A DNA stretch of 64,000 nucleotides from a virus (IMGVR_UViG_2930337131_000001:1-64000); one strand, 5' to 3'. Shown: positions 1 to 53,285, counted from the stretch's first letter. Numbers and translations are program-made. The notes: generated by a model from the letters alone, not told the origin.

Positions 1-15
1 GGGGAGCTGCCGCGG

Positions 16-909
16 TCAGGCGGCGAGCAGAAGCTGGGGGTCGTCCGGCAGGCTGTTGAGGAGCGCGTTCCGCCAGGCGATGGCGTACTTGGGGCAGTTG
101 CCGCAGTGCACGTGCTTGCCGACGCATCCGGGCATCGGGGCCCGGTTCACCGCGTTGTACGACCAGGCGAGCGAGTCGGAGCTGTAGAGCTGGTGGGCGA
201 CGCGGCGGAGACCGGTCTTCTTGAAGCCGAAGCCGTGCAGGCGGATGCCCATGGACCAGATCGTTTCGATGATCCGGGCGGCCTCGTCGGTCTGCTGCAG
301 GCGGCACACAGAGCCGATGCCAACGACGGGTTCGAGCGTGAGGTCGACGCCGACCTGGTCGTACAGGTCGATGCACCGCAGGTAGTCGTCGAGCGTGCGG
401 CCCTGGATGACCGGCATCCACGGCAGCTCGGAGTCGAGCGTCATCAGGTTCAGGTACGACGCGACCGTCTTGATCTGGTGGTCCGCGATGGTGAGGCCGG
501 TCTTCGCGAGGATCTCGTCCTCACACATCCAGTCCTGAATGGAACACATGTCCATCAGGCCGATCTCGTCGTAGTACCGGCGCGCCGCCGCGGCGTACGT
601 GTACGGCGAGATCGTCCAACGGCCGTGCTGCGACAGCTCCGTGAATCCACGGGAGTCGAGCATCCACGGCGTCACGGCCCGCGGCAGGGTCACACGGTCG
701 GCCAAGCGCCCGTGGGAGACGCACAGCGGGATGCAGTCGTTGCCGAACTCTTCGCGGGCGAGCCAAGACGGCTGGTGCGTGCCCAGGTACGTCACGCGGT
801 CGACGTCGGCGAACCACGTGCGCGGGGCGTACACCGGGGCCGGACGCTTTGCCTTGGGCTGTGCGTTCGCCGCCGGGGCGGGAATGTCGAAGAGTGCGGC
901 ATCAGCCAT
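16..909 (-). CDS. DpdA/TGT-like (queuine tRNA-ribosyltransferase fold) putative DNA base-exchange transglycosylase
   Basis: TGT-family motifs MLDSRGF, PVIQG, GIGSVC, LHGFG, SSDSLAW; C-terminal Cys/His cluster. ATG at 909 follows AGGA RBS. Confidence 0.75.
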   Translation of the reverse strand: MADAALFDIPAPAANAQPKAKRPAPVYAPRTWFADVDRVTYLGTHQPSWLAREEFGNDCIPLCVSHGRLADRVTLPRAVTPWMLDSRGFTELSQHGRWTISPYTYAAAARRYYDEIGLMDMCSIQDWMCEDEILAKTGLTIADHQIKTVASYLNLMTLDSELPWMPVIQGRTLDDYLRCIDLYDQVGVDLTLEPVVGIGSVCRLQQTDEAARIIETIWSMGIRLHGFGFKKTGLRRVAHQLYSSDSLAWSYNAVNRAPMPGCVGKHVHCGNCPKYAIAWRNALLNSLPDDPQLLLAA

Positions 910-978
910 GGTGTTCCTCGCTTCGTGGTCCGTTGGCGGTGCTCTCCGCCAACACGAGGAATAGTACACCCTGGGCAA
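910..978 (-). promoter_or_regulatory. Class A box plus AGAGCA-hairpin leader (copy 1)
   Basis: TTGCCCAGGGTGTACTATTC...GTTGGCGG-AGAGCA-CCGCCAAC-GGACCACGAA-GCGAGGAACACC-ATG. Confidence 0.8.
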
Positions 979-1044
979 CGTGTGGGGTAGGGGTGCGCGG
1001 AAACTGAAGCGGGGACCGCGCCAGGACGGCCCCCGCTCGCGTGA

Positions 1045-2145
1045 TCAGGCGGCCAGGCCGTACAACGTGACCTGACGGGCGCGGTACTTGCTCGCCGCGG
1101 CCCGGCCGATGTGCCCGGCCATCGCGGTCCCAGCCGGCGGCCGCGCGGCGGGACCCTCGGCCTCCTCGAGCGCCTGGGCGCGCCGGATGATCTCCCGCAT
1201 CGACAACCCCTTCTTGAAGTCGGCCCCGACCACCACTTCGGTCCGGGCGTACGCCGCGGCGAGCTCCGGCACCCGGCGGGCGCCATTCACCAAGTCGCTG
1301 TTGCACCCGAGGACACAGAAAACGCAGCTCAGGCGCCGGTTTCCCCAGTCGTAAGCCGGGTGGTACGGCAGACGCGACCGGGCTATCTCCTGCCACACCT
1401 TCCGGTCGCTCCACGCGTGGATCGGGCGCCAGGTGACGACGTGCCGCTTGCCATTGCTCGCGCCGCGGTTGATCTCCACCTCGGCGAGCTGCGCCCGCGC
1501 GGTGCTCTCCGCGGCCCGCTGGCCGATGCACTCCAGGATCCGCACGGGACGGCCCAGGTCGCCCAGCTCGGCGACCAGCCGCGTGTACAGGGTCCGGATC
1601 GGGCCCCGCTTGGCGTCCGGGGTGCACCAGCGCGCAGAACTCGACGGCCAGGCCGGCGCAACCTTCGCCGTCGTCGGGTCCTCGCCGCGCTCCCGCGCCT
1701 CCTCCTCGGCCTTCGCCTTCAGCTTGCCGTACCGGATCTCGACGCGGTCGAGGAGATCGGCGCCCTTCGCCTGGACCACCTCGAACCGGGGGACCCCGGC
1801 GAGCGCGGCCTGGAGCTCGGCGAGCTCGCGCGTCCCCTCCCACTCGACCCGGCCCAAGTCCGCGTGGACGACGACGACCTTGTGCAGCATCCCCAGGGCC
1901 TTCGCGCGCCGCACGACGTACGACAGCATCGCCTGACTGTCCTTGCCGCCACTGCTCGAGATCACGACCCAGTCCGCGTCACGGATCATCTCGTCCGGCA
2001 CGGTCGTCGACGGCTCGAGGGGCACGGACGCGTGCACCGTCTTCCGCCGCTTCGGCTTCGGCGTGGGCTTCGCCGGCGCTTCGACCACGGCGGCTATCTG
2101 GGGGCTCTGGATGGCGGGGAGGTCGAACAGGGTCGCGGTCTGCAT
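1045..2145 (-). CDS. PAPS-reductase-family (PP-loop adenine nucleotide alpha-hydrolase) protein
   Basis: SSSGGKDS PP-loop, HADLGRVEW, RWCT..KRGP, GQRAAES, RLSCVFC. Confidence 0.85.
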   Translation of the reverse strand: MQTATLFDLPAIQSPQIAAVVEAPAKPTPKPKRRKTVHASVPLEPSTTVPDEMIRDADWVVISSSGGKDSQAMLSYVVRRAKALGMLHKVVVVHADLGRVEWEGTRELAELQAALAGVPRFEVVQAKGADLLDRVEIRYGKLKAKAEEEARERGEDPTTAKVAPAWPSSSARWCTPDAKRGPIRTLYTRLVAELGDLGRPVRILECIGQRAAESTARAQLAEVEINRGASNGKRHVVTWRPIHAWSDRKVWQEIARSRLPYHPAYDWGNRRLSCVFCVLGCNSDLVNGARRVPELAAAYARTEVVVGADFKKGLSMREIIRRAQALEEAEGPAARPPAGTAMAGHIGRAAASKYRARQVTLYGLAA

Positions 2146-2235
2146 GGCGGGCGTCCTCGAGGGCGTGGAGCGGGCGGAGCGGGGCGGCGAGCGGGGACAG
2201 GGGGCGCAGCACGGGCCGCGCCCCCTGGGGGGTCG

Positions 2236-2691
2236 TCAGCGGTACCAGTGGCCGAACTGGTTGCGCGCGGTCACGTACATCTCTCCGTGCGTCTCGGTGG
2301 CCCACGGCGACCGGGGCAGCTCGTACCGGACGACCGCGCCGAACCGGCAGGTGGACACGACGGACGCGGTGACGTCTCCCACGACGGTGATCACGTCGCC
2401 GGTCTGCAGACCCAGGAAGTCCGGCGTGGACACGCTCGCCTCGGTCCTCCACCACGCGCCCCACGCCTTCGGCTCGTGCGGGGACCTCGAGAGCGGCGCG
2501 AACCGGTCGCCCGGCCGGTGGTCGACCCACTCCGCCGTGCCCGCCTTCGGGCTGTACAGGTGTGCACGGTCGTACGCGGCCGGGACGCTCGAGACGGGCA
2601 GCTCTCCCAGGGCGAGCGGCCGACGGACCTTCACGGGGGCCGGGACGGCGGGGGCGGCGGGGGCGACGTCGAACAGGGCGAGGGTCTGCAT
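2236..2691 (-). CDS. hypothetical protein
   Basis: GGAGG RBS then MQTLALFD; GC3-rich frame. Confidence 0.7.
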   Translation of the reverse strand: MQTLALFDVAPAAPAVPAPVKVRRPLALGELPVSSVPAAYDRAHLYSPKAGTAEWVDHRPGDRFAPLSRSPHEPKAWGAWWRTEASVSTPDFLGLQTGDVITVVGDVTASVVSTCRFGAVVRYELPRSPWATETHGEMYVTARNQFGHWYR

Positions 2692-2771
2692 GGGGTCCTC
2701 CAGGACGTGAGGCGGGCGGAGAGGGGGGCCGGGGCGCACCGTGCGGGCTGCGCCCCGACCCGGGGGAGCTG

Positions 2772-3497
2772 CTAGCCGTTGCAGGCGGCGCGGATGGCGG
2801 CGATGAACTTGGCGGCCGCCGCGGTGGCGCTCGCGGGGTCGGCGTCCGGGTCGCACCGGTGGATCACCACCTCGTCCGCGCCGTTGTTGAACCGGATCTG
2901 CCAGGTGCCGCCCCAGTGCTCGAGCGGCTCGTCGACGAACACCCAGTCCTCATGGGCCTCGTAGACGTACGCGACGAGCTGGGGCGTCCCGACGCCGGGG
3001 AAGTCGTCGCCGGTCAGGGGGATGACCAGCCACGAGTTACCGGCGTCGTCGTCGCGGTGGGCGGTGATGCCGTACTCGGTGAGCGCCGCGGTCATCCGCT
3101 CGCGGGCCGTGGGCAGCGGGGGCGTGAGGATGAGCCGCGCGAGACGCTCCCGGCCGGTGTGGTCGCGCTCCCAGACCTCCGCCGCGCGCCAGCGGGCCAC
3201 GCGGAACAGGTGGGCGTACTCGAGGGTGACGCGCAGCCGCTCGTCGCACTGCTGCTCCCAGCCGGCGCTCGGCCGGTGTTCGGGGAGGAGCTCCAGGACC
3301 ACCTCGCCGGTCTCGCGGCGCGGGTCCAGGTAGGCCCCGGCGCTGATGCACTGGTCCCGCTCGTTGAACGCGGCCAGCGGCTGCCCGTCGTGCGTCAGGA
3401 GACGGATGGCGGCCTTCACCTGGGGGACGTCGACGCTCCCGGGGAGGCAGCCGAGGGGGCGCGGCGCGGTCTGGGCGGTGGCGGGCTTCGTGGTCAT
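2772..3497 (-). CDS. hypothetical protein
   Basis: RBS GAGGAG; codon bias; co-oriented run. Confidence 0.7.
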   Translation of the reverse strand: MTTKPATAQTAPRPLGCLPGSVDVPQVKAAIRLLTHDGQPLAAFNERDQCISAGAYLDPRRETGEVVLELLPEHRPSAGWEQQCDERLRVTLEYAHLFRVARWRAAEVWERDHTGRERLARLILTPPLPTARERMTAALTEYGITAHRDDDAGNSWLVIPLTGDDFPGVGTPQLVAYVYEAHEDWVFVDEPLEHWGGTWQIRFNNGADEVVIHRCDPDADPASATAAAAKFIAAIRAACNG

Positions 3498-3583
3498 GGC
3501 GCGGGGTTCTCCTCGGTGAAGTCGTGGCGTGCTGGGGGGGGCGGGGCGCAGCGTCGGGGTGCTGCGCCCCGCCGGGGGTCCGG

Positions 3584-3799
3584 CTAGAGCTGGGGTTCGC
3601 GGACGCGGCCGTCGGAGTACACGAACAGCAGGGGCGCGCCCTGGTCGGTGCGGACGGCGGCGGTGTGGGCGGGGTAGCGCAGGGCGGCCATCTCGGTGTG
3701 CGCGCGGCTGACGATGTCCTCGCGGGCCATGTCGTCGGGCAGCTCGGTCACGGTGCCCTGTCGGACGTCGGACCAGTTGGCGTAAAGGTCGATGCGCAT
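3584..3799 (-). CDS. hypothetical protein
   Basis: RBS GAGGA; 71 aa; flanked by hairpins. Confidence 0.65.
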   Translation of the reverse strand: MRIDLYANWSDVRQGTVTELPDDMAREDIVSRAHTEMAALRYPAHTAAVRTDQGAPLLFVYSDGRVREPQL

Positions 3800-3887
3800 G
3801 GGGTTCCTCTGCTGGGGCCGAGTGAGGCGGGGAGGGTGCCGGGGCGCGGCGCGTACGGTCGCGCCCCGGCGGTAGGGACCGGACCGG

Positions 3888-4304
3888 TCAGACGACGTCG
3901 GTGACGGTGAAGTGGTCGGCCAGGCCGTGACCGGCGTTCTCGGCCTCCATGCGCACGGCGGCGATGTACACGGCCTCGATCACCGCGCGGGTGGTGTGGT
4001 CGACGACGTACCACTTGCCGCCACGGCCGCCCGTCCAGAAGTCGAGCGCGTACCGGGTCGCCAGGGTGACGGGCTCCAGGTACTCGACGACGCGGATGGT
4101 CTGGCCCCACGCGCCCTCGGCGGTGCGGATGCCGGACTCGCGCAGCACCTTGCCGCCCGCGATGTTGAACGCGTACGCGTCGTGCTGCTCGCGGGGGACG
4201 GTGGTGGAGTAGATCCGGTGGTGCATGACCGCGCGCGGCTCGCCGAACTGGGCGGACAGCTCCCACCAGGGCTTCAGGGCGGCCTCTACGGGGGCAACGC
4301 TCAT
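3888..4304 (-). CDS. hypothetical protein
   Basis: ATG at 4304 directly after leader copy 2. Confidence 0.7.
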   Translation of the reverse strand: MSVAPVEAALKPWWELSAQFGEPRAVMHHRIYSTTVPREQHDAYAFNIAGGKVLRESGIRTAEGAWGQTIRVVEYLEPVTLATRYALDFWTGGRGGKWYVVDHTTRAVIEAVYIAAVRMEAENAGHGLADHFTVTDVV

Positions 4305-4396
4305 AGGGGTGTTCCTCCTTCGTGGTCTGGCGGGTGCTCTCCCGCCAACACGCAGAATAGTACACCCTGGGCAATGATGGGTAGGGGTTGCCCAGG
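4305..4396 (-). promoter_or_regulatory. Class A box plus AGAGCA-hairpin leader (copy 2)
   Basis: CCTGGGCAA..TTGCCCAGG inverted pair; GTGTACTATTC; TGGCGGG-AGAGCA-CCCGCCA-GACCACGAA-GGAGG. Confidence 0.8.
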
Positions 4397-4479
4397 AAAA
4401 CCCACGGGGAACGGCCCCGGGATTCCCTCCGGCTGTGCATTCGGGGGAGTCTCGGGGCTCTACCTGCCCGGGGGAGCTG

Positions 4480-5502
4480 CTACGCGGCCGGGGCGAACAG
4501 CCGGCGCTCGGCGTCCACCGACGGCAGCAACACGCCTGCCAGGCTCGCGCTGAACTCCTCCACCTGGGCCCGGGGGATGGCGACGTGCGTGGTCCCGTCG
4601 GGGAACCGCTCCGCCATGGGGCGCGGCTTCGGCCACGGGGCACGGCGGGGCTTCACCGGCATGGGCGGGGGCACCACCAGCGCCGGACGGGCCACCGACA
4701 CGGGGAACAAGCCCTCCTGCCCGTCCTCCTCGGCCCGCACGGCGTCCACCTCGTCGGCCTCCCGCAGCATCGCGGCGTGCGCCTGCTCGAACAGCTCCAC
4801 CCGCTCGAGCTCCAGGCGCTCCGCCTCCACCCGCGCGGCCTCCGCACGGGCCAGGCGCTCCGCCTCGGCGACGACCGCGGGCACCATCCGCGCCCGGAGG
4901 GCCGTCACCGCGCTGTCGTCGGCCCGCTCGAGGTCCACACCGCCCACGGCGGCCCACACCTCCTCTGCCACGGCCCCGTGCTGCTCCCACAGCGGCCGGG
5001 AGCTGCTCCGCGCCTCCACGGGCCGCGTACGGGCCCCCAGACGCTGCGCCAGGGCGTGCAGGACGTCCGCGCGGAACTCCCGGACCCGCACGCGCATCGT
5101 CGACGCGTCCTCGTACTCCAGGAACTCCTCGGCGGCCGCGGAGCGCTTCCACGCGCCGAACACCCGGACCGCCCGGGTCGCCAGGGCCTCCACCTCGTCC
5201 AGGACCCGCTCGAGGGCCACCAGGTACCCGGCGACCGCCCCCGCGTCGCCCTGCACCGTCAGCCGCCGGTCGTCCAGGCCGCCGTACCGCTCATCCGTGC
5301 CGCACATCTCCTTGTAGAACGACCACCGCGGGTTCAGCTTGAAGGGGGTCGCCGCCTCCACCCCGTGAACGTCGGCCAGGGCCCACGCCACGTCGTGGTG
5401 CTGCTTCGCCCGACGCTTCGACGGCGCAGGGAACGCCAGGTCGACGGTAAACCGGCCCGGGGCCGACTCGTACGGGCGGGGGAACTCAACATGCGCACTC
5501 AT
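4480..5502 (-). CDS. hypothetical protein
   Basis: 340 aa, strong GC3 bias, follows leader copy 3. Confidence 0.75.
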   Translation of the reverse strand: MSAHVEFPRPYESAPGRFTVDLAFPAPSKRRAKQHHDVAWALADVHGVEAATPFKLNPRWSFYKEMCGTDERYGGLDDRRLTVQGDAGAVAGYLVALERVLDEVEALATRAVRVFGAWKRSAAAEEFLEYEDASTMRVRVREFRADVLHALAQRLGARTRPVEARSSSRPLWEQHGAVAEEVWAAVGGVDLERADDSAVTALRARMVPAVVAEAERLARAEAARVEAERLELERVELFEQAHAAMLREADEVDAVRAEEDGQEGLFPVSVARPALVVPPPMPVKPRRAPWPKPRPMAERFPDGTTHVAIPRAQVEEFSASLAGVLLPSVDAERRLFAPAA

Positions 5503-6127: not shown

Positions 6128-7984
6128 TCAGCCCTGGGAGCGGCGGACGTACTCGACGGGGACGGCGACGCTGAACAGGGCGCCGATCACCTTGCGGGCG
6201 TTGGCGGCGGCGTCCTCGCGGCCGTCGCGCTTGCGGAACTTCGCGACGATCGCCGGGTGCGCGGGGATGAACCCCTGGGGCGTGTCGACCCCGGCCGTGA
6301 TCGTGGCGGTGACGTTCCAGCCGGTGCCGGAGTCGCTCGAGCACTGCACGCGCACCAGGGGCGTGCCGGTCTCGGCGGCGGTCAGCTCCTCGGCCGTGCC
6401 GTCGACGGCGTTGTACGCCACGGCGGCCGTACGGATCTCCTCGGCCGTGCTGGGCAGGTCGGTGCCGTGCATGCGGTGGGCGTGCGGGGCGACGGCCAGG
6501 ATCACCGCGCGGGCCTGCTCGACGGCGGCGCGCGCCTGGTCGTGGGCGGCGTTGCGGGCCCGCAGGTCCCCAGCGGTGCGCAGCGACTCCCACGCGTCCT
6601 CGACGGCGTCCTTCGCGTCGACGATGGCCAGGTGGTGCTCGCTGGGGGCGTGCTTGCCCAGGGTGAGCAGGTGGCGGCCGAGGTCCTCGAGGTCACGGGG
6701 CGCGGTGGCGCACACGGTGGCCTCGTACGCGGCCAGGGCGGCGTACAGGGTCCCGGCGGCCGGGGCGGTGTCCTCGGCGGCGGGGCCGAACACGGTGTCC
6801 AGGGAGGCGCGGGTAACCATCAGGTGCATGTCCGGCGGGAAGGTGCTGCCGGTGGTGCTCTCGTCGTGGCTGCGGAACGTCCAGGTGGGGCGGACCCAGG
6901 GCGCGCCGGGGCCGACGAACGCGGTGACGGCGTCGACGGTGCGGGTCTCGCCCATGTGGGCGTGGATCACGTCCATGCCGGGGCGGAGCATGTCGGCGCG
7001 GACGGGGAGCGCCGAACCGTCGGTGATCTCCTGGAACGTCTCGGCGTAGTACGCGGACAGCTCCGCGTCGATGTCGCCGGTCAGCTCGGCGTCCGTGGGG
7101 CGCTCCAGGGCGGGGAAGAGGTCGCCGGGGGTGGCGGGGCGCAGGTACACGGTCCGGCCGTCGCGGTAGACGATGTGGGCGGTCGACTTGCTCGCGGACA
7201 TGCGCTTGACGGTGCGCTTCACCAGCGGCTGCATCATCGCGGCGTTGATCTCGTCCAGGGCCTGCCGGGTCGGGATGATCTCGGTGGTGCCGTTCTCGGT
7301 GCGGACGTGCTTACGCTCCACGGTGGGCGCGGCGCCGGGGGCCGGCTGCGGGACGTACCGGCGGTTCTCCACGACGATCGCGCGGTCGGCGGGGTCCTGG
7401 CGGAACTGCTGACGCTTGAAGCGCAGGTTCGACACGATCTTGCGGACCTGGGCGGCGGGGATGCCGTCGTGCTTGCGCTCCTCGCCGACGTACACGGCGT
7501 GCGGCGCGTCGACGACGTCGTCGGTGGTGGGCAGCTCCTCCAGCTTCGCGGGGGCCTTGCTCCACAGGCGGATGGACACCGGCTCGACACCGCGCAGGCG
7601 CATCGGGGACAGGCGGTTGGACAGGCGCGCGGAGATCGCGTCGGTGAGTTCCTTGTCCCAGCCGCGCGGGTCGCGGTCGCCGCCCTCGACGATCTCGTCG
7701 CGCAGGGCGTGCACCTGGTCGTCGCTCATGTGGTGGAGCTGCTCGCGGATGGCCCAGTACCGCTCATCGCGGGTGAAGATGACGCGGACGCGCTCCGACT
7801 CGGCGTCCCGGCGGATGATGCGCCGGACGGTCTCCTTGTTGGCCTTGCCCTGCTCCTTGTCGGCGTCGCGGCTCATCACGGCGTCCACCAGGTCGTGCGT
7901 GACCACGCGGCCGTTGTCCAGGCGGGCGGAGATGAAGACCTGCAGCGCCATGGCTTCGGCGCGGTCGGTGGCGGTCAGCGTCAT
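6128..7984 (-). CDS. hypothetical multidomain protein
   Basis: 618 aa, strong codon bias, follows leader copy 4. Confidence 0.8.
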   Translation of the reverse strand: MTLTATDRAEAMALQVFISARLDNGRVVTHDLVDAVMSRDADKEQGKANKETVRRIIRRDAESERVRVIFTRDERYWAIREQLHHMSDDQVHALRDEIVEGGDRDPRGWDKELTDAISARLSNRLSPMRLRGVEPVSIRLWSKAPAKLEELPTTDDVVDAPHAVYVGEERKHDGIPAAQVRKIVSNLRFKRQQFRQDPADRAIVVENRRYVPQPAPGAAPTVERKHVRTENGTTEIIPTRQALDEINAAMMQPLVKRTVKRMSASKSTAHIVYRDGRTVYLRPATPGDLFPALERPTDAELTGDIDAELSAYYAETFQEITDGSALPVRADMLRPGMDVIHAHMGETRTVDAVTAFVGPGAPWVRPTWTFRSHDESTTGSTFPPDMHLMVTRASLDTVFGPAAEDTAPAAGTLYAALAAYEATVCATAPRDLEDLGRHLLTLGKHAPSEHHLAIVDAKDAVEDAWESLRTAGDLRARNAAHDQARAAVEQARAVILAVAPHAHRMHGTDLPSTAEEIRTAAVAYNAVDGTAEELTAAETGTPLVRVQCSSDSGTGWNVTATITAGVDTPQGFIPAHPAIVAKFRKRDGREDAAANARKVIGALFSVAVPVEYVRRSQG

Positions 7985-8091
7985 GGGGTGCTCCCTCGTT
8001 CGTGGTCCGGCCGGGGATGCTCGCCCCGGCCCCGCCTTAGTGGCGTCCGCTGACCGTACCGCCCTCCCCTCGAATACGCAACCCTGGGCAA
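7985..8091 (-). promoter_or_regulatory. Variant class A box plus hairpin leader (copy 4)
   Basis: TTGCCCAGGGTTGCGTATTC; GGCCGGGG-CGAGCAT-CCCCGGCC-GGACCACGAA. Confidence 0.7.
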
Positions 8092-8172: not shown

Positions 8173-8259
8173 TTGCCTCGGGTGTACTGTTCTCCTCAGC
8201 GGTTCACACCGCAGCCCCGGAGAGCACCGGGGCGAGACCACGAACACGAGGAGCACCCG
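8173..8259 (+). promoter_or_regulatory. Variant class A box plus hairpin leader (copy 5), divergent from copy 4
   Basis: TTGCCTCGGGTGTACTGTTC; GCCCCGG-AGAGCA-CCGGGGC-GAGACCACGAA. Confidence 0.75.
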
Positions 8260-10282: not shown

Positions 10283-10504
10283 GTGAGCACTGCCCCCGAC
10301 TGGTCGGCCATGCGCCGCGCCGACTTCGACCCGACCGCCCCGCTCGCCCTGGTGGAGGCCCGCGACGTCACCCGCCGCGTGGAGGCCGTCCCGGACGCGT
10401 GCGGCACCGACGCCCTGTTCGGGGACGAGCCGCGCCCCGCCCGCCCGGCCCACCGCAGTAGGCCGGCTGTCGCGGACGCCCCGGAGGCCGACGCCCTGTT
10501 CTGA
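10283..10504 (+). CDS. small hypothetical protein with two DALF motifs
   Basis: RBS AGGAG, GTG start. Confidence 0.65.
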   Translation: MSTAPDWSAMRRADFDPTAPLALVEARDVTRRVEAVPDACGTDALFGDEPRPARPAHRSRPAVADAPEADALF

Positions 10505-10615: not shown

Positions 10616-10684
10616 TTGCCCAGGGTGTACTATTCAGGGGTTGGCGGAGAGCACCGCCGACGACCACGAAGCGAGGAGCACCCC
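10616..10684 (+). promoter_or_regulatory. Class A box plus hairpin leader (copy 7)
   Basis: TTGCCCAGGGTGTACTATTC; GTTGGCGG-AGAGCA-CCGCCGAC-GACCACGAA-GCGAGGAG. Confidence 0.8.
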
Positions 10685-15618: not shown

Positions 15619-15692
15619 TTGCCCAGGGTGTACTATTCGGCGTGTTGGTGGAGAGCGCCGCCGACGCGGACCACGAAGAAGAGGAACACCAG
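15619..15692 (+). promoter_or_regulatory. Class A box plus hairpin leader (copy 10)
   Basis: TTGCCCAGGGTGTACTATTC; GTTGGTGG-AGAGCG-CCGCCGAC-GCGGACCACGAA-GAAGAGGA. Confidence 0.8.
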
Positions 15693-17027
15693 ATGCGGAC
15701 CCTGCCCCCAGCGGTCGCCACCGCCGTGCACGTCGCCACCCTCGCCCGCAAGGCAGGGAAGCCGATCCCGCCGAAGGTGTACGCCGTCCTGGAGGCCGCC
15801 GCCAACCCGTGGCCCGCCGAGTGGCTGCTCGCCCCGCTCCCCGGCGACCCGATCCGCGTGGTGGAGCTGTTCGCCGGTCCCGGCGGCTGGTCCGAGGGCA
15901 TCGCCGCCGTCCTCGGCGTGGCCGTCGACTCGTGCGGAGTGGACATCTCCCCGGACGCCTGCGCTACCGCCCGCGCCGCCGGACACCGCCGCATCTGCGC
16001 CGACATCACCACCCTGGACCCCGAGCACATCGCACTGCGCTACACCGCCGCCGTCATCATCAGCCCGCCGTGCCCCACGTTCTCCCCGGCGGGCAAGCTG
16101 TCCGGTCTCGAGGCCCGCAACATCGACATCCTGTGCACCGCCATCGCCTACGTGGGCGAGGCCGCCGGATTCCTGCCCGTCGACGAAATCTTCGACTTCC
16201 ACGACGAGGACGACTACGACGAGGACGGGAACTGCCCGTGCGAGCCGGGCGAGGGTTGCATGGCGCCCTTCGCCCCGCGCTCTGGTGCCACCTGGGATGA
16301 GGTCCGCGAGATGGCTGCCGAGGTCAGCGACCCCCGCATTGCCCTGATGCTCGAGGTCGTCATCTGGCCGCTCGCGCTGCAGGCCGCCGGGGCACCGATC
16401 CGCTGGATGGCCATGGAGCAGTCGCACAACCTGCCCGAGGACATCCTCGACTACCTGTCCGGCGAGTTCCGGTGTGCCGAGTGGTTCTACACCAGCCACG
16501 ACATCATGGAGGCTGCGGACTACGGCCTGCCCTCCCGCCGCAAGCGCGTGTACATGGTCGCCACCCGCACCTACACGCCCGCGATCACACGCCGCATCCG
16601 CCCGCTCCCCGCGACGTCCATGGCGCAGGCCCTCGGCTGGCAGCCCGGCGAGCGCGTCAACACGCGCGGCACCCGCCCCATCGACCCGAAGACCGGCCGC
16701 CCCAAGGGCGGGAACTGTTTCTCCGCCGACGGCCCGTCCTGGTGCCTCACCGGCAAGTCCCGCACCTGGAAGCGAGAGAGCGACGGCCTGCGCCTCACCG
16801 AGTCGGAGGCTGGTCTCCTCGTCGGGTTCCGCCGCTCCTACCCGTGGCAGGGAAGCCGCACGAGCGCCTTCCAACAGGCCGCCGACGTCGTCTCCCCGGT
16901 CATGGCCGCCATCGTCCTGTCCGGCATGTTCGGCGCCCTCGGCGAGGCCCTGGTGCGCGACTACCTCGCCCAGCTCTACGAGATGGACGACATGCTCGCC
17001 CAGGACGACTACGACCTAGTCACCTAG
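15693..17027 (+). CDS. orphan DNA cytosine-C5 methyltransferase
   Basis: Motif I ELFAGPGG, motif IV SPPCPTFS, MEQ (ENV-like), YGLPSRRKR, RLTESEAGLLVGF, QQAADVVSP. Confidence 0.9.
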   Translation: MRTLPPAVATAVHVATLARKAGKPIPPKVYAVLEAAANPWPAEWLLAPLPGDPIRVVELFAGPGGWSEGIAAVLGVAVDSCGVDISPDACATARAAGHRRICADITTLDPEHIALRYTAAVIISPPCPTFSPAGKLSGLEARNIDILCTAIAYVGEAAGFLPVDEIFDFHDEDDYDEDGNCPCEPGEGCMAPFAPRSGATWDEVREMAAEVSDPRIALMLEVVIWPLALQAAGAPIRWMAMEQSHNLPEDILDYLSGEFRCAEWFYTSHDIMEAADYGLPSRRKRVYMVATRTYTPAITRRIRPLPATSMAQALGWQPGERVNTRGTRPIDPKTGRPKGGNCFSADGPSWCLTGKSRTWKRESDGLRLTESEAGLLVGFRRSYPWQGSRTSAFQQAADVVSPVMAAIVLSGMFGALGEALVRDYLAQLYEMDDMLAQDDYDLVT

Positions 17028-23428: not shown

Positions 23429-23448
23429 TTTACCTGGGTGTACTATTC
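23429..23448 (+). promoter_or_regulatory. Class A promoter box without hairpin leader
   Basis: TTTACCTGGGTGTACTATTC. Confidence 0.6.
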
Positions 23449-48157: not shown

Positions 48158-48627
48158 ACGCCCCAGAGACCTCGCTCGCCGTTCCGGCCGAAGCCGAGTT
48201 GGCCATCGCTCGCTCCCTCTCCACCGACCTCCCCGGCGTCCCGTACGCCGTTCAGGGAGCGCGGTTCTGGGTTCGGATGTCCGTCACGGCCCTGTGCTGG
48301 CAGGGCGACATCCTGCAAGCGGTCGAGGTCATCAGCCGACTCGTGGACAACGGTGTCCGCCACGGCATGCCCGCCGACGTACCCAAGGACGAGCGGCGCC
48401 TGGTTCTGTCCGCTGCCGTCGCCGAGACCGGCGAGCTCCTCATCGACGTGTCCGACCTCAACCCCGCGTTCCCCGACTTCGACAGAGCGGTGGCGGGAGA
48501 GAAGGGGCGCGGCCTGTGGCAGGTCGCCCGCCTGGGCGCGCGCATCATCCGGTTCCTGCCGCACGAAGGGGCCGGGAAGACCGTACGGGCCGTACTGCCT
48601 CCTGGACCGGTGAACCCCTATGCCTAA
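48154..48627 (+). CDS. second HATPase_c-like protein
   Basis: LVDNGVRHG, VSD, GRGLWQV, GKTVRA. Confidence 0.7.
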   Translation: MNAPETSLAVPAEAELAIARSLSTDLPGVPYAVQGARFWVRMSVTALCWQGDILQAVEVISRLVDNGVRHGMPADVPKDERRLVLSAAVAETGELLIDVSDLNPAFPDFDRAVAGEKGRGLWQVARLGARIIRFLPHEGAGKTVRAVLPPGPVNPYA

Positions 48628-49315
48628 GCAGCTCCATTGGGGGGACCTGCGCGTCCCCTACATCACGGCCTGGAGCGCCGAGGTCGTTCCCCAGCCCGAT
48701 GTCGTCCGGGTCACCCGACGCGGCGGCGAGGGCATCGGGTACGAGGACGAGGACCCCGTCATCGATCGCCGGCACGAGGCCTTGTGGGTGCGTTCCGGCA
48801 TGGCCCGCGGCCGCGGTGCGCCCGACTTCAGCCGCATCAACTCGCTCCGGCAGAAGCGGGCGATGCGATACGACCTGTGCCAGCTCTGCGGGTTCACGGT
48901 TCTGGGCACGCGGGACGACGAGCGAACCCTGTGCCTCATGGGTGGCGACAGACCGATCGCGGAGGGGGAGACGACGACGGCACCCCCGGTTCACCCCGCG
49001 TGCGCCAAGTACTCGATCGAGAACTGCCCGCCTCTCCGCCGCAAGCACGCGGCCGCGCTCGTCGACGTCAGCCGCCTGTGGGGCGTCGCTGGTGTGGTCT
49101 TCGACCCGGTCACGATGCAGCCGCTTCCCAGCACCGGATCGCGACCTGGCGACCTGGACCACGTTCACGTCGCGGACAAGGCCATCCGGTGGACCCTGGC
49201 CAACTTCACCGTGCACAGCCTCCATGGCGTCACACCCGTGTCCACGGATGAGCTGTACGCCATGGCTGAGCGCGAGCCCGGCCTACCCGACGGTGAGCGC
49301 GTGAGCGCCCCCTAG
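48620..49315 (+). CDS. Cys/His-motif hypothetical protein
   Basis: VPYITAWS, LCQLCG, PPVHPAC..CP. Confidence 0.7.
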   Translation: MPKQLHWGDLRVPYITAWSAEVVPQPDVVRVTRRGGEGIGYEDEDPVIDRRHEALWVRSGMARGRGAPDFSRINSLRQKRAMRYDLCQLCGFTVLGTRDDERTLCLMGGDRPIAEGETTTAPPVHPACAKYSIENCPPLRRKHAAALVDVSRLWGVAGVVFDPVTMQPLPSTGSRPGDLDHVHVADKAIRWTLANFTVHSLHGVTPVSTDELYAMAEREPGLPDGERVSAP

Positions 49316-49563
49316 ATCCTGCCCGGCGGCCCGGTGCCGATATGGCCCTGGCCCTCGGGCAGCACAACCCCGGCGCGCAGAGACCTGCCTTTCCCCTCCC
49401 CTGGGCAAGTCCCGACGCCGGCATGTCGGCCCTGCAGTCCAGCGATGCCACGCCCCGGACTGCAGGGCCGACGCCCGGGTCGCGGTACCCGGTCCGCCGA
49501 CTCCCCTGCGGGCGGCCGGTGCCGCGGCCCGAACCATCACCCCGACGCTCAACGGAGGAAACT

Positions 49564-50541
49564 GTGACCGACCTTGGATTGCCGAGCGTGCCCCGTCAGC
49601 AGCACAGGGAGCTGGGCGGAGGCATCGGGTACGCCTTCAACGGACAGCACTTCGACGCTCCGGCAGACGCCAGCGTCGCGGACATCGCGAGCACACTCGA
49701 CGCGCCGCTGTCCGTGATCGTGCAGGTCACCAAGCGCTGTGACTTCGACTGCTCGTTCTGCTCCGAGATCCTGCAGATGCCGGATCCCACCCTCGAGCAG
49801 CTCGACACCATGCGCCGGAACCTGGCAGGAGTCAGCCGGGTGTTCCTGTCCGGCGGTGAGCCCCTGATGCGCAAGGACTTCGGGGAAGTCGTCGACATCT
49901 TCGCCGACCACCACATTGTCGCCGTGCCCACGAACGCCACCCACGCCCTGGACCACGCGCGGAACATCGCCGGGAAGATCTCGTACGCCAACGTCGGGTT
50001 CGAGGGCCCCCGCGCCGCCTTCAAGCGGGTCCGCGGCGACTACGACAAGACGATGGCCGGCGTCCGCGTTCTGCAGGAGCACGGCATCCCCCTCGCCCTG
50101 TCCGCCGTCGTCTACCGCTCCACCCTGTCGGTGCTGCCGTACACCGTGCAGATCGCCGACGTCCTGGACGCCACGAAGGTGAAGCTGATCCTGCCCCTGC
50201 GCAAGGGCAACGCCCTGAACCTCGCCGACCACGAGTTCATCACCACCGAGGAAGCGGAGACCACGTTCGCGCGACTCAAGGAGCAGCGCGCCGAGATGCA
50301 GTGGTCCCCGGCGCTGCGGCTGACGGCCTGGACGCCGCAGAACGAGGGGCACATGCTCGTCGTGGAACCGAACGGCATCGTGAGGGCCTGGCCGGTCTAC
50401 GACGCCCCGGACCTCTGGGAGAACCTCGGCAACATCCTCGAGGAGCCCATCACCGAAATCTGGAAGCGGTACCGCTTCAAGGAGAACCACATCTCCAAGT
50501 ACGTCGGCCGCTCGATCCACGCGGTCACGCAGGGGGTGTGA
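49564..50541 (+). CDS. radical SAM enzyme
   Basis: CDFDCSFC (CxxxCxxC), SGGEP, PTNA; GGAGG RBS before GTG 49564. Confidence 0.9.
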   Translation: MTDLGLPSVPRQQHRELGGGIGYAFNGQHFDAPADASVADIASTLDAPLSVIVQVTKRCDFDCSFCSEILQMPDPTLEQLDTMRRNLAGVSRVFLSGGEPLMRKDFGEVVDIFADHHIVAVPTNATHALDHARNIAGKISYANVGFEGPRAAFKRVRGDYDKTMAGVRVLQEHGIPLALSAVVYRSTLSVLPYTVQIADVLDATKVKLILPLRKGNALNLADHEFITTEEAETTFARLKEQRAEMQWSPALRLTAWTPQNEGHMLVVEPNGIVRAWPVYDAPDLWENLGNILEEPITEIWKRYRFKENHISKYVGRSIHAVTQGV

Positions 50542-50542
50542 C

Positions 50543-51331
50543 GTGCTCGAACGCACCAACCTGGGATGGCCCGAGACGCCATACGGCTCGGTCACCAGCC
50601 CCGTGCAGAAGCCCGGGACATGGTTGACCGGCATCTTCCTGCTCTGGGGCGAGGCCGGCGACGACCCGATCCTCATGGGCGCCGCTGCGGTGTTCATGAA
50701 GATCCACCGCACGCAATCGCTACCCGTCTCCGCTCCGCTCATGAACTTCGGGTACAGGGTGCTGATCCCGCAGGCCCTGGGCGAGACCGCGGCGATCGTC
50801 CGGCAGCTCGACACCGTGCTCGTCCAGGCCCGCCGCAAGTCGCAGATCCTCGCCTGGCACAACGGCGCCGACGACCTGCACGTCCTGCGGCAACTCCCCC
50901 GGGCCGACGACGAGCCGCGCCACCCGGGCGTGACCGCCATCGCCGACGCCTGGAAGGACCGCAGCACCCGCGAACGGGGCACCACGCTGTGCGTGGACAC
51001 CAGCCACGATCTCGGACCGGCCGGACTGATCAGCGACACCGCAACAGCGCACGGGCTCGAGCCGCTCAAGTCGTTCGCCGGCCAGCAGCAACAGGCCAGC
51101 GCGCAGGAGGCGTGCGACGCCCTCACGGAGGACCGGGACGCAGCGTTCTCGCCGGACGCCCTGGCCGGCAGTGCCCTGTCCTCAGCCCTCGCTACGGCAC
51201 TGATGGGAGGTAAGCACACCGGCCGGCTGCACTGGGACGAGCCGCTGAGTCTCTTCCAAGCACTGTCCGAAGCCGCGTGGGAGGCGGCCCCCTCACTTCT
51301 CGGCGGCGTGGCGTCGGTACGGAGCGAGTAG
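50543..51331 (+). CDS. degenerate RNase H/DEDD-like protein
   Basis: LAWHNGADDLHVL, CVDT; resembles next gene but lacks DxE motif I. Confidence 0.5.
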   Translation: MLERTNLGWPETPYGSVTSPVQKPGTWLTGIFLLWGEAGDDPILMGAAAVFMKIHRTQSLPVSAPLMNFGYRVLIPQALGETAAIVRQLDTVLVQARRKSQILAWHNGADDLHVLRQLPRADDEPRHPGVTAIADAWKDRSTRERGTTLCVDTSHDLGPAGLISDTATAHGLEPLKSFAGQQQQASAQEACDALTEDRDAAFSPDALAGSALSSALATALMGGKHTGRLHWDEPLSLFQALSEAAWEAAPSLLGGVASVRSE

Positions 51332-51392
51332 CGTCCCGGCGGGGCCGTGCGCACCGGGCGTGCGGCCCCGCCCTACCCCAGGAACACCACAC

Positions 51393-52253
51393 ATGATCAT
51401 CACGAGCAACTTGCCCAGCACCCGCTCCCTGCGACCCCCTCCCCTGCACTCGGGAGATGTGCGGATCGCGTCCGTCGACGTTGAGTGGACGAAGAACTAC
51501 CGGATCAAGAACGGGCAACGCCCCTTCTGCTTCAGCGTCGCCTGGCTCGACCTGCCTGCCGACGGGACACCGGACCTGGCGGACGTCCCGTTCGAATGGA
51601 CCAGCCTGTACGTGGATGAGCCCGACGAGATGGATGAGCTCATCCGGCGCGCCGCGCAGACGCTGTCCGCGGCCGCGGAGACCGCCACGATCATCACCGG
51701 GCACCAGTTCTGCAGCGACCTGGCCGTCCTGCGGTCGAACGCTCCCGCGGACGCGCTGCAGGAGCTGGAGCGGGCCCGTGAGCAGTGGAGCGGCCGTCGC
51801 ACGGCCGACCCCACCGCGAGCCACTACGTCGACACCCGGTATGACGCCGGGCACCTGCTCACCGGAGCGTCGCGCCGCCTGGTCGACGTGTGCACGGAGC
51901 TCGGCCTGGACGTCACCCAGCCCGAGCTCAGCAAGACGTCCATGCCCGAGTGGCACCGCCGTTGGCTCAACGACGGCAACGAGGAGGGCCGGGAGCGCGT
52001 GAGCGTCCTCAACCTCCGGCACTCCCTCTCGACCGCCTACGTCGCCGCCCGCAGCGCCGGACTCGCGGTGTGGGCCGCCGACGGCCTGAACGTCAACCGA
52101 GTCATCGCCGAGGGCGCAAAGGGCGCCTGGGCCTGGCTCGAGAACCCCGTCTTCACCAACCTTCTGGAGGTCCCGTGTCCGTCCGCGAGTGCCGCGTTAT
52201 CGCCGTCGAAGGCACCCAGGCCGCAGGCAAAACGACGTTCGTCCACGCCCTGA
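51393..52253 (+). CDS. DEDD/RNase H-fold 3'-5' exonuclease-like protein
   Basis: ASVDVEWT (Exo I), TGHQFCSDL (Exo II), VDT. Confidence 0.6.
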   Translation: MIITSNLPSTRSLRPPPLHSGDVRIASVDVEWTKNYRIKNGQRPFCFSVAWLDLPADGTPDLADVPFEWTSLYVDEPDEMDELIRRAAQTLSAAAETATIITGHQFCSDLAVLRSNAPADALQELERAREQWSGRRTADPTASHYVDTRYDAGHLLTGASRRLVDVCTELGLDVTQPELSKTSMPEWHRRWLNDGNEEGRERVSVLNLRHSLSTAYVAARSAGLAVWAADGLNVNRVIAEGAKGAWAWLENPVFTNLLEVPCPSASAALSPSKAPRPQAKRRSSTP

Positions 52254-52786
52254 CCGCGCACCTTCGAGAGCAGAGCATCGGCGTCACCTGCACCGGCGAG
52301 CCCGCGCGCACCAGCCCGTTCATGGAGGACATCGTCCTTCACGGGACAGGGCCCTTCGACCTGGTCGCGGAGCTCGACCTGTTCGCCCAGCACTTCACCG
52401 TGCCGCTGCGCGCCGCCCGGCACCACCAGGTCCTCATCACCGACAAGACCCCCGCGAACGTCCTGGCCCTGGCCGGTCTGGTCCTCGACCCCACCGAGCC
52501 GGGCACCGCTTCCGTCCTCGCCGCGGCGGAGGCGATGTGTCGGGCCTGGATGCCCATTGCGTACGACGCGATCGTGTACTGCCGGGACCGCTACGACCAG
52601 AAGGCCGGCGGCGACCGCATGAGGGAGAAGGTCCTCGGCCTCCAGGACGACGCGGACACCGCCATCTACGACGCGTGCCGCGCCACGGGCGTGCCGATGC
52701 TCGAGATGCCCACGGGCCTGACCGTGTCTGAGCGTGTCTCGTGGACTATGCAACGCGTTGGAGACATGGGGCTGATCGCTGTCTGA
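52175..52786 (+). CDS. P-loop nucleoside-monophosphate-kinase-like protein
   Basis: IAVEGTQAAGKTT, EPAR, LITDKT; GGAGG RBS. Confidence 0.8.
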   Translation: MSVRECRVIAVEGTQAAGKTTFVHALTAHLREQSIGVTCTGEPARTSPFMEDIVLHGTGPFDLVAELDLFAQHFTVPLRAARHHQVLITDKTPANVLALAGLVLDPTEPGTASVLAAAEAMCRAWMPIAYDAIVYCRDRYDQKAGGDRMREKVLGLQDDADTAIYDACRATGVPMLEMPTGLTVSERVSWTMQRVGDMGLIAV

Positions 52787-52841
52787 TCCCGGCTAGAGTC
52801 CCCTACCGGCAAGCGCCCAACCGGTCGGAGGACAACGCACC

Positions 52842-53285
52842 GTGCCCCAACTGCCCGTGAACGACGTAATGCTCATCCTCGAGCGCGACGGGGCCGTGTG
52901 CCTTGCCGAGCGGCAGGGCACCGGCTACGCCGACGGGAAGCTGAACCTGCCGTCCGGGAAGCTCGACCCGGGCGAGGACGTGTTCGACGCCGCGCTCCGC
53001 GAGCTCGAGGAGGAGACCGGCGTCAAGAGCACCCGGGACGCCCTGCGGATCGTGCACGTGATGCACTTCCGCAACCCCGAGGGGGAGCCTCGCGTGGGCT
53101 GGTTCTTCGTCGTCCAGGATTGGGAGGGGGAGCCGCGGAACATGGAGCCGCACAAGTGCGCCGGCCTGTCCTGGCACCCCGCGGACCACCTTCCCGACAA
53201 CACCGTCGAGTACAACGCGCTGGGGATCGCCCACTACCTCAAGGGTGAACAGTTCTCCGTGCACGGGTGGGACAGGTCCGCGTAG
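52842..53285 (+). CDS. Nudix hydrolase
   Basis: GKLDPGEDVFDAALRELEEETG; NMEPHKC. Confidence 0.92.
   Translation: MPQLPVNDVMLILERDGAVCLAERQGTGYADGKLNLPSGKLDPGEDVFDAALRELEEETGVKSTRDALRIVHVMHFRNPEGEPRVGWFFVVQDWEGEPRNMEPHKCAGLSWHPADHLPDNTVEYNALGIAHYLKGEQFSVHGWDRSA

Follow-up and report, generated by a model that had tools for sequence, protein, structure and literature searches.

The stretch of DNA analysed here, called the window throughout, comprises 64,000 nucleotides (IMGVR_UViG_2930337131_000001:1-64000) and corresponds to bases 1-64000 of a 128,053-base virus record that is rated 100% complete and carries terminal repeats. Two minus-strand genes at its left end are the subject of this work: one encodes a homolog of the DNA guanine transglycosylase DpdA (16-909) and the other a PP-loop ATP pyrophosphatase with the PAPS-reductase fold (1045-2145). 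The explanation that we prefer, to which we give an even chance of being right, is that they are two DNA-modifying enzymes which act independently of each other, are co-regulated and are probably tethered to the sliding clamp. An earlier note on this DNA had proposed that the pair may jointly install a non-canonical base modification. Part of that proposal stands, given that both proteins belong to superfamilies of nucleic-acid enzymes, lie in an early block, usually occur close to each other and have an N-terminal peptide in common; that they are obligate partners did not stand.

Genes were called by third-position G+C (GC3), and the 115 open reading frames (ORFs) thus obtained from the 128-kb genome were scanned against Pfam, NCBIfam and PHROG; the presence or absence of families reported below refers to these ORFs unless another search is named. 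The calls bore out the earlier note in placing two co-oriented genes on the minus strand between positions 16 and 2145, and its description of the first of them as similar to DpdA and to tRNA-guanine transglycosylases (TGTs) also held. The ORF 16-978 opens with a TTG and would yield 320 amino acids, while the ATG at 909 yields 297 and is preceded by a GAGGA ribosome-binding site, whose spacing equals that found with the other copies of a promoter-like box described below. The TTG at 978 was rejected as the start, its position being inside that box. Given the GAGGA spacing and the overlap of the upstream part with the box, the gene was taken as 16-909, with ATG 909 as its most likely start. The protein matched Pfam PF23859 with 263 bits (cut-off 27; profile positions 5-251 of 291), in agreement with a six-frame search of the genome, and phrog_1279 with 269.7 bits, and it is 85.5% identical to gp114 of Streptomyces phage Gilgamesh. 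Neither NCBIfam nor PADLOC held a model for it, and searches of the PDB sequences with the protein (phmmer) and with a 30-sequence profile gave no match. An AlphaFold2 model built on the 30-sequence alignment reached a mean predicted local distance difference test (pLDDT) of 86.1, with residues 1-37 below 50. Its top Foldseek match was 7ui4, the Salmonella DNA preQ0 insertase DpdA (E 1.4e-6; template modeling score 0.45 by query), and further matches were archaeal, bacterial and eukaryotic TGTs, hence TGTs from all three domains of life, in keeping with a TGT-like TIM barrel.

Residues D85, D126, D245, Q169-G170, G197, G199, H266, C269 and C272 are invariant in the 30-sequence alignment, H266, C269 and C272 being three residues of a His/Cys metal site; F89, the gate Phe, is conserved in the alignment blocks and absent from the invariant list. 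By motif order and spacing, and not by superposition, D85, F89, D126, Q169-G170, G197/G199 and D245 match Asp95, Phe99, Asp130, His181-Gly182, Gly206-Gly207 and Asp256 of the Salmonella enzyme. For the Salmonella protein, Asp95 has been described as general acid/base and Asp256 as nucleophile, and guanine exchange was abolished when either was changed to Ala (PMC10164549). Judging from these invariant catalytic residues, the window's DpdA homolog appears to be functional in exchanging a guanine-like base. The earlier note had also pointed out that the usual DSGG motif reads DSRG here, and the sequence, the alignment and the homolog counts all agree with it: among 120 listed homologs the loop reads DSGG in 97, DSGA in 14, DSGS in 4, DSRG in 3, DSLG in 1 and DSSG in 1, and Arg87 stands where the first Gly of DSGG would be. 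One DSRG bearer represents a separate cluster of 52 member sequences (92% identity), so the motif is not a sequencing error; on these counts, DSRG is a tolerated variant of a small subclade. The family as a whole (4145 members at E≤0.001) keeps 47-56% identity across genera, a conservation that fits purifying selection on an enzyme.

The nearest tested relative comes from Mycobacterium phage Orion, whose gp20 is 47% identical to the window's protein over 253 residues (E 1e-81), while the validated Rosebush gp2 gave a BLASTP match that is not significant (E 0.14). Orion gp20 scores 467 bits against PF23859, compared with the 263 bits of the window's protein, and Rosebush gp2 matches no Pfam family; PF23859 is, in effect, the Orion type. 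In the 2019 phage survey, Orion is the example of the 'DpdA only' group, and phages with a DpdA but no means to make its substrate form the largest of four groups (PMC6884629). According to the same text, Rosebush DNA carried dPreQ0 at about 28% of its guanines, and Orion DNA contained fewer than 6 per million nucleotides of dPreQ0, dADG, dG+, dPreQ1 and dQ (PMC6884629). Orion is thus negative for five deazaguanine nucleosides and is the only tested member of the Orion-type clade; because its DNA carried none of them, the family name 'DpdA' is for this clade an annotation and not a shown activity.

With respect to precursor supply, the earlier note was right that folE, queD, queE and queC are absent from the window, and wrong in suggesting that they may lie beyond its left edge: six-frame searches of the whole 128,053-base record revealed no QueC, no PTPS/QueD and no GTP cyclohydrolase I (FolE). 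The only radical-SAM gene, at 49342-50541, was considered as a hidden QueE and rejected, its best models being PqqE, NirJ and SPASM maturases. The DpdA homolog could still be an ordinary DpdA that borrows preQ0, 7-carboxy-7-deazaguanine (CDG) or preQ1 from the host or the soil, the PP-loop enzyme being unrelated to it. Salvage or host supply has been proposed for DpdA-only phages (PMC6884629); a true QueC (177.5 bits) was found in one of five Streptomyces carrier genomes, one viral record (G020) has QueC directly beside its DpdA, and the residues that would read a guanine-like Watson-Crick edge are kept. Against this, the other four carrier genomes showed only PP-loop matches of 21-26 bits inside long unrelated frames, and among the 80 nearest viral DpdA loci, of which 50 related records were searched, QueC was present in 1 and missing from 49; no preQ0 transporter family turned up in general Pfam scans, in which YhhQ was not searched by name, and Orion had none of the five nucleosides. 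We consider this explanation quite unlikely.

The same negative result for Orion (PMC6884629) has also been weighed as a sign that the DpdA homolog no longer exchanges bases and is a decaying gene, a DNA binder or a glycosylase-like protein serving anti-defence or regulation. The missing precursor supply and the rarity of the change from Gly to Arg beside the general acid/base Asp (3 of the 120 listed homologs) would agree with such a loss. It seems highly improbable to us, since the ORF is intact with a GC3 of 0.92, like the neighbouring genes, the alignment shows no variation in the three catalytic Asp or the His/Cys cluster, DSRG is kept in the separate 52-sequence cluster, and the 4145-member family has remained as conserved across genera as indicated above. 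As a side observation on this family, domains of the PDDEXK, RepSA, DndB/DGQHR or integrase kind are present in nine DpdA homologs of greater length. In those numbered P0241-P0246 the Orion-type domain is fused, or was called fused, to a PDDEXK nuclease, to RepSA, the replication initiator of actinomycete integrative elements, or to a DndB/DGQHR domain, and this last arrangement recalls the DpdA-DpdB pairing of bacterial Dpd systems.

The second enzyme of our preferred reading, encoded at 1045-2145 on the minus strand, has 366 amino acids and matched PAPS_reduct PF01507 with 52.3 bits (cut-off 22.5) and phrog_424 with 103.7 bits; it is 86.3% identical to Gilgamesh gp116. It carries the PP-loop SGGKDS and the CxxC motif SCVFC, and the description of it as a PAPS-reductase-like enzyme with both motifs, which the earlier note had given, is confirmed. 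Across 35 PP-loop sequences S65, G67, D69 and S70 (SGGxDS) are invariant, as are exactly three cysteines, C174 in RWCT and C274 and C277 in SCxFC, which we take to resemble the cluster site of TtuA-type enzymes. The structural model (pLDDT 90.2, residues 1-21 below 50) includes a C-terminal helical region, and its best Foldseek matches were APS/PAPS reductases (2goy, E 2.2e-7), followed by the [4Fe-4S] thiolase TtuA (5b4f, E 9.5e-6); a search of the PDB sequences gave only marginal matches. The CxxC of the enzyme lines up with that of 2goy, an iron-sulfur APS reductase. These features suggest that the enzyme would adenylate its substrate in an ATP-dependent manner and hold a three-cysteine metal site, as in cluster-dependent thiolases.

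The kinship of this enzyme with DndC and SspD, to which the earlier note had appealed, could not be upheld. All 14 NCBIfam matches lie far below their cut-offs, among them DndC (TIGR03183, 28.3 bits against 290.4, and only over residues 167-261) and the CysH, PAPS and APS reductase models (TIGR02057, 25.7 against 254.2; TIGR00434, 24.7 against 165.1; TIGR02055, 29.6 against 235.3; NF002537, 35.6 against 154). PADLOC gave partial matches to BrxP (48.6 bits, positions 133-318 of 779), DndC (17.6-31.9 bits) and SspD (22.6 bits). By these scores the protein is a member of the superfamily that stands outside DndC, SspD, BrxP and CysH. The statement of the same note that no other dnd or ssp genes are visible was correct: no DndA/IscS, DndD, DndE, SspA, SspB or SspC was found in the Pfam scans of the 115 ORFs, or by PADLOC, which was run on 9 ORFs only, and no PglZ or BrxC-type neighbours of the BREX kind turned up in the Pfam scans. 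The clade is large (1237 proteins at E≤0.001 among 8000 candidates scored) and is carried on mobile DNA; the neighbours in 80 genome loci include C5 methylases in 7, and a set of DUF2201/VWA, ParB and integrase genes lies beside the homologs in about 19 of the 80, mostly in Alphaproteobacteria.

The two proteins are alike at the N-terminus. The DpdA homolog begins with an extension of about 37 residues (799-909, minus strand; the part with pLDDT below 50) made of an LFD peptide, a Pro/Ala-rich linker and a basic patch. The PP-loop enzyme begins with one of about 50 residues (1996-2145, minus strand; residues 1-21 below 50), in which the tag MQTATLFDLP is followed by a Pro/Ala linker and the basic patch KPKRRK. 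A third ORF of 151 amino acids (2236-2691, minus strand) opens with MQTLALFDVAP, so that three consecutive genes start with MADAALFDIP, MQTATLFDLP and MQTLALFDVA; this ORF belongs to no known family, with no match in Pfam, PHROG or PADLOC and none above 0.81 in the Atlas. The six frames of the 128-kb genome were scanned for LF[DE] within 12 codons of a start followed by at least 60 high-GC3 codons, which gave six candidates. Three of them are the adjacent genes just mentioned, and the other three were discarded as they lie inside longer genes (4480-5502, 70862-73063 and 106036-106668). LF[DE] at a true gene N-terminus is thus confined to three genes of the genome, which are mutually adjacent. 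Each of the nine related loci with a DpdA homolog retains the tag on that protein, eight loci retain it on the PP-loop homolog, and tagged homologs of ORF 2236-2691 are present in Gilgamesh (at the gp117 position) and in locus L009. More distant members of both families are missing the tag-bearing extension of about 40-50 residues, for which disorder is predicted, and that of DpdA is confined to the phage-plasmid lineage of its family.

The classical beta-clamp-binding pentapeptide is QL[SD]LF. Among 120 listed PP-loop homologs, 106 had a recognisable PP-loop anchor, 86 of them with a long extension and 20 without, and xxx[LM]F occurred within the first 25 residues in 70 of the 86 as against 1 of the 20. 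In 27 of these 70 tagged homologs the peptide reads QLALF, QLTLF, QLSLF, QLDLF, QLGLF or QLAMF. Additionally, a paper on Streptomyces gives the general clamp motif [EK]-[LY]-[TR]-L-F, and reports that NucS carries KLRLF and that its activity is enhanced by the clamp (PMC11109965). From these peptide patterns, the most likely function of the LFD tag would be to dock the enzymes on the host beta sliding clamp. Two further observations concern peptides of this type. The ORF 10283-10504 (plus strand) has a C-terminus ending in ...EADALF, which would be another LF-type end peptide, and in two Streptomyces loci (L011, 6843-8354; L012, 6013-6675) a further family without Pfam match bears an N-terminal ALF[DE]LP tag, followed by ...VLSYGLGADS..., which resembles a variant PP-loop.

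Evidence for co-regulation came from a 20-nucleotide promoter-like box, TTGCCCAGGGTGTACTATTC, present in eight copies in the 128-kb genome when up to 4 mismatches are allowed. Seven are in the window, at 959-978, 4355-4374 and 8072-8091 on the minus strand and at 8173-8192, 10616-10635, 15619-15638 and 23429-23448 on the plus strand, and one is outside it, at genome position 105754-105773 (minus strand). After the box come a stem-loop of 8 bp, a conserved GACCACGAAG box and then a GAGGA site, and this module precedes early-looking genes. One such module (910-978, minus strand, with its box at 959-978) stands directly upstream of the DpdA start. A second (4305-4374, minus strand), with an exact copy of the 20-nucleotide box at 4355-4374, heads a five-gene unit that runs from the ATG at 4304, 50 nucleotides after the box, to the PP-loop gene, which ends it at 1045. 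According to the GC3 calls, three upstream ORFs of this leftward unit (3888-4304, 3584-3799 and 2772-3497; together 2772-4304, minus strand) are partly syntenic in relatives; 2772-3497 and 3584-3799 had no Pfam or PHROG match, and 2772-3497 and 3888-4304 had none in PADLOC. A third module (15619-15692) leads into a C5 cytosine DNA methyltransferase gene that ends at 17027 (15619-17027, plus strand; PF00145, 65 bits; phrog_116, 100.6 bits) and likely starts at ATG 15693. The leaders of DpdA and of this methylase are 90% alike over 48 nucleotides (opposite strands, complementary arm).

The 20-nucleotide box does not have the sigma-70 consensus; a sigma-70 scan of positions 1-4600 found no promoter-like site, and the same region holds two terminator-like sites, one of them inside the PP-loop gene and none between it and DpdA. 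No Rfam family reached its gathering score in the window; the stem-loop of the repeated leader thus corresponds to no RNA described so far. From the common boxes and leaders, and from the lack of a terminator between the PP-loop gene and DpdA, DpdA, the PP-loop unit and the C5 methylase appear to be switched on together; Gilgamesh has, by annotation, a sigma factor of its own (gp92), which could be the reader of the box. It must be noted that DpdA has its own copy of the box, which we counted against its pairing with the PP-loop gene.

Whether the two genes belong together was assessed in 80 genome loci around PP-loop homologs, in which a DpdA was considered near when it lay within 10 kb. In the window itself the gap between them is 135 nucleotides (910-1044). 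A DpdA was near in 8 of the 10 loci where the PP-loop enzyme is at least 62% identical to that of the window, in 2 of 9 at 41-49% identity and in 1 of 61 more distant ones, hence in 11 of the 80, while 69 had none within that distance. The co-occurrence in homologous elements on which the earlier note had staked its proposal thus holds for 8 of 10 close loci, but either gene is also found alone within the lineage. In two Streptomyces genomes (L012 and L014) a PP-loop enzyme of 79 and 64% identity is present and a PF23859 gene is absent throughout, and conversely a provirus fragment, 22% complete (L088/G007), has a 94% identical DpdA directly after a homolog of ORF 6128-7984 and no PAPS_reduct in its 29 kb. 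The sets of phage records carrying a homolog of DpdA (408) and of the PP-loop enzyme (21) overlap only in Gilgamesh, with two accessions, so that 406 of the 408 have no tblastn match to the PP-loop enzyme and 19 of the 21 have none to DpdA.

This distribution bears directly on the possibility of a joint pathway, in which the Orion-type DpdA and the PP-loop/three-cysteine enzyme would make one new DNA modification. The PP-loop enzyme may make or activate the guanine analogue, or may finish the inserted base on the DNA by ATP-dependent amidation or thiolation, and a common clamp tag may hold both enzymes at the fork. Several observations speak for it. To the synteny in 8 of 10 close loci may be added that, among IMG/VR loci whose DpdA is at least 73% identical, 3 of 4 have the PP-loop gene close by; in two Kitasatospora loci both genes are present in diverged form (39% and 41-44% identity), separated by 3-4 kb; and in the Streptomyces locus L015 (6894-10831) a C5 methylase, DpdA and the PP-loop enzyme are adjacent in a row, DpdA being upstream of the PP-loop gene, in an order opposite to that of the window. 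The PP-loop subfamily of the window occurs in 4 of the 80 nearest viral DpdA loci, three of them Gilgamesh-like and the fourth L142. Among viral records with a DpdA, 13 of 50 hold a PAPS_reduct gene of any kind, as do 7 of the 27 with a completeness of at least 90%; these counts are to be read against the background rate in actinophages without DpdA. A different PAPS_reduct subfamily (SGGRTS, RLCT, CDLC) starts less than 100 nucleotides after DpdA in L123 and L124; a third PP-loop subfamily lies 3-4 kb from DpdA in G011 and G012, and occurs, with SGGNDS, in L092 and L093. The restriction of the tag to three adjacent genes and the fact that the clade has no known precursor supply also favour a joint pathway. 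It is opposed by the loci and phage records with one gene only, as detailed above, and by the identities of the two genes, which do not track each other across relatives (76 and 92% in L007, 92 and 87% in L008). In Gilgamesh, L008, L010, L013 and L016 the two are separated by inserted, unrelated genes, and none of the nine long DpdA homologs is a DpdA-PAPS_reduct fusion, which is weak evidence. Taken together, a joint pathway is in our opinion unlikely, without being far-fetched, and there is no support for a pathway in which both enzymes are obligatory; the genes are true neighbours, probably on account of a common job, the early treatment of phage DNA.

The preference for two independently acting enzymes also draws on the kind of element that carries them. 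Bases 1-2200 are 86.9% identical in nucleotides to phage Gilgamesh over 99% of their length, and the window has a G+C content of about 70-75%. At least 17 homolog clusters are located on Streptomyces isolate contigs of 124-133 kb, and in many Streptomyces isolate assemblies homologs of both DpdA and the PP-loop protein are on contigs of that size. No DNA polymerase was found among the 115 ORFs, and no sliding clamp in the 128-kb genome, where it was searched for. The element appears to be a temperate Gilgamesh-like Streptomyces phage that persists in plasmid form, with a size of about 128 kb, and relies on the host replisome for its copying; those isolate contigs would fit such a life style.

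On the preferred reading, both enzymes would be made from the early leftward block of this phage-plasmid while the host replisome copies it. Acting on a guanine in DNA, the DpdA homolog would break the glycosidic bond by way of a covalent intermediate at Asp245 and put in another guanine-like base; preQ0 is a compound that neither the phage nor most hosts are able to make. The PP-loop enzyme would adenylate its substrate with ATP, and its three-cysteine, probably iron-sulfur, site would pass on sulfur or another nucleophile. The LFD peptide on its flexible basic linker would dock all three tagged proteins on the host beta clamp and thereby direct them to freshly replicated phage DNA. Such a handle would make mechanistic sense because the element is presumably copied by the host replisome. 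We infer, in this scheme, DNA as the substrate of the PP-loop enzyme, the iron-sulfur nature of its site, the binding to the clamp and a pay-off against restriction; the families and folds, the conserved residues, the lack of precursor genes, the counts of synteny and the common tag are observations.

Several points weigh against this reading. The tags of the window, TATLF, DAALF and LALF, are degenerate, the Q and the initial L of the classical motif being absent from them, and the tag could dock elsewhere, such as on a phage hub protein, on the capsid for packaging or on a host factor. The three-cysteine site is a reading of an alignment, and the Arg of DSRG is next to the general acid/base Asp, where it could weaken the enzyme or alter its action. 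In addition, other PP-loop subfamilies lie 0.1-7 kb from DpdA in three further viral lineages, and this recurrence argues for more than chance neighbourhood; the common tag and the kept neighbourhood would fit a joint pathway just as well. A bolder variant, which we hold to be very unlikely, is that the Orion-type clade, which has thousands of members, almost all of them lacking a deazaguanine precursor pathway, inserts a guanine analogue that is not a 7-deazaguanine, that in the Gilgamesh-like phage-plasmids the PP-loop enzyme makes or finishes this base, for instance by thiolation or amidation with ATP, and that both ride the clamp, the mark being written during copying. If true, it would amount to a new DNA base modification and to the first replisome-coupled transglycosylase system.

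The scans of the 115 ORFs identified virion genes (a portal to which a Mu-F-like domain is fused, a capsid protease, a capsid protein, a tail tube and a large terminase), an integrase and ParA, and genes for SSB, RusA, an IstB/DnaC-like ATPase and FtsK. They also revealed a dCTP deaminase, the C5 cytosine methylase, two proteins of the NUDIX type and a radical-SAM enzyme of the SPASM type. The gene for this last protein (49342-50541), which had a weak viperin-like match in PADLOC (30.6 bits), is located among ORFs without known family at 48620-53285 (plus strand), with an AAA_28/thymidylate-kinase-like protein (52175-52786) and a NUDIX hydrolase (52842-53285) nearby; this region, which lies immediately upstream of the portal, may be a second cluster for nucleotide modification. 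The portal and a small SNase-like gene are followed directly by one open frame with 3981 codons, which extends from 57615 to the end of the window at 64000 and on to genome position 69560 (plus strand). Its first 2128 residues have no Pfam match, and it could encode a giant injected or 'polyvalent' virion protein. Farther on, the genome carries a MazF/PemK-like toxin gene and an undecaprenyl-diphosphate-synthase-like gene beside a PAP2 phosphatase-like gene and ParA (115049-115366 and 119220-119945, both plus strand). The toxin-like and the undecaprenyl-diphosphate-synthase-like genes are odd cargo for a phage and fit a plasmid-like life style.

As regards novelty, both genes are already annotated in Gilgamesh, and the 'DpdA-only' phages are a described and unexplained group. 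In the literature searched, with the supplementary tables of the phage surveys (PMC6884629, PMC10516641) lying outside the search, we found no report that places a DpdA of a Streptomyces phage-plasmid in the Orion-type clade. The searches likewise found no report of several PP-loop subfamilies recurring beside Orion-type DpdAs or of a clamp-binding-like N-terminal tag common to these enzymes, nothing in print on Gilgamesh gp114 and gp116, and no paper that links DpdA with PAPS reductase or deals with the Orion-type clade in Streptomyces phages. A query on phage PAPS-reductase-like enzymes and IbrA/IbrB gave nothing usable. The parts are thus ordinary, and the value of the locus is that of a cultivable system for an open question: Gilgamesh, a relative that can be grown on Streptomyces lividans, provides a handle on the DpdA-only phages, and a candidate partner enzyme recurs beside such DpdAs. 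The locus also offers a testable idea of how a plasmid-like phage without its own polymerase brings DNA-modifying enzymes to new DNA. If the tag binds the clamp, it would be a simple marker for replication-coupled enzymes on actinobacterial mobile elements; if no mark is found in the DNA, this would suggest that the Pfam name 'DpdA' over-states the activity of the clade.

The closest known counterpart is Gilgamesh itself (MN234216), in which gp114, a 'queuine tRNA-ribosyltransferase', and gp116, a 'PAPS reductase-like domain protein', form the same module with the same orientation and N-terminal tags. It differs in an extra hypothetical protein of 190 amino acids, gp115, between the two, and presumably in the DpdA motif, taken as DSGG from the family counts and not from a direct reading. 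Orion gp20 belongs to the same Pfam family, whose proteins NCBI names DUF7221 family queuine tRNA-ribosyltransferase-like protein, and comes, like the DpdA of the window, from a DpdA-only phage whose host is mostly or wholly without the preQ0 pathway. Unlike the protein of the window, it has no N-terminal tag, the alignment between the two beginning at residue 41 of the former, and there are no Mycobacterium phages among the 21 records that match the PP-loop enzyme. With the DpdA of Salmonella Montevideo (7ui4), the window's homolog has in common the TIM-barrel, TGT-like fold and the three catalytic Asp and gate Phe in the same order and spacing. Rosebush carries ParB, DpdA, QueC, QueD, QueE and FolE in a row, whereas the phage of the window has neither a DpdB-like ParB ATPase nor preQ0 genes; regarding the partners in bacterial Dpd systems, no ParB_N, DndB or DUF328 family turned up in the Pfam scans.

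DndC, SspD and BrxP, of the Dnd, Ssp and BREX type 4 phosphorothioation systems, resemble the PP-loop enzyme in the PAPS_reduct domain, the PP-loop, the RWCT-type cysteine region and their carriage on mobile or defence-related DNA. They differ in that the matches of the window's protein cover only part of their profiles, BrxP being also longer (a profile of 779 positions compared with 366 amino acids), and the Pfam scans gave none of their partners (cysteine desulfurase, DndD/E, SspB/C or PglZ). Among assimilatory APS/PAPS reductases (CysH; 2goy, 1sur and 2oq2) and [4Fe-4S] tRNA thiolases (TtuA, NcsA), the best structural matches are 2goy and TtuA. Compared with CysH, the enzyme has in addition the N-terminal tag and the C-terminal helical region, and the C-terminal catalytic cysteine motif of the ECG[IL]H type, a feature of CysH-type enzymes, was not seen in its sequence. 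Finally, the peptides of the window differ from beta-clamp-binding peptides in being degenerate and in having a D after LF, and they are similar to them in being short end peptides that end in LF on a disordered linker, with QLSLF, QLALF, QLTLF and QLDLF present in their PP-loop homologs.

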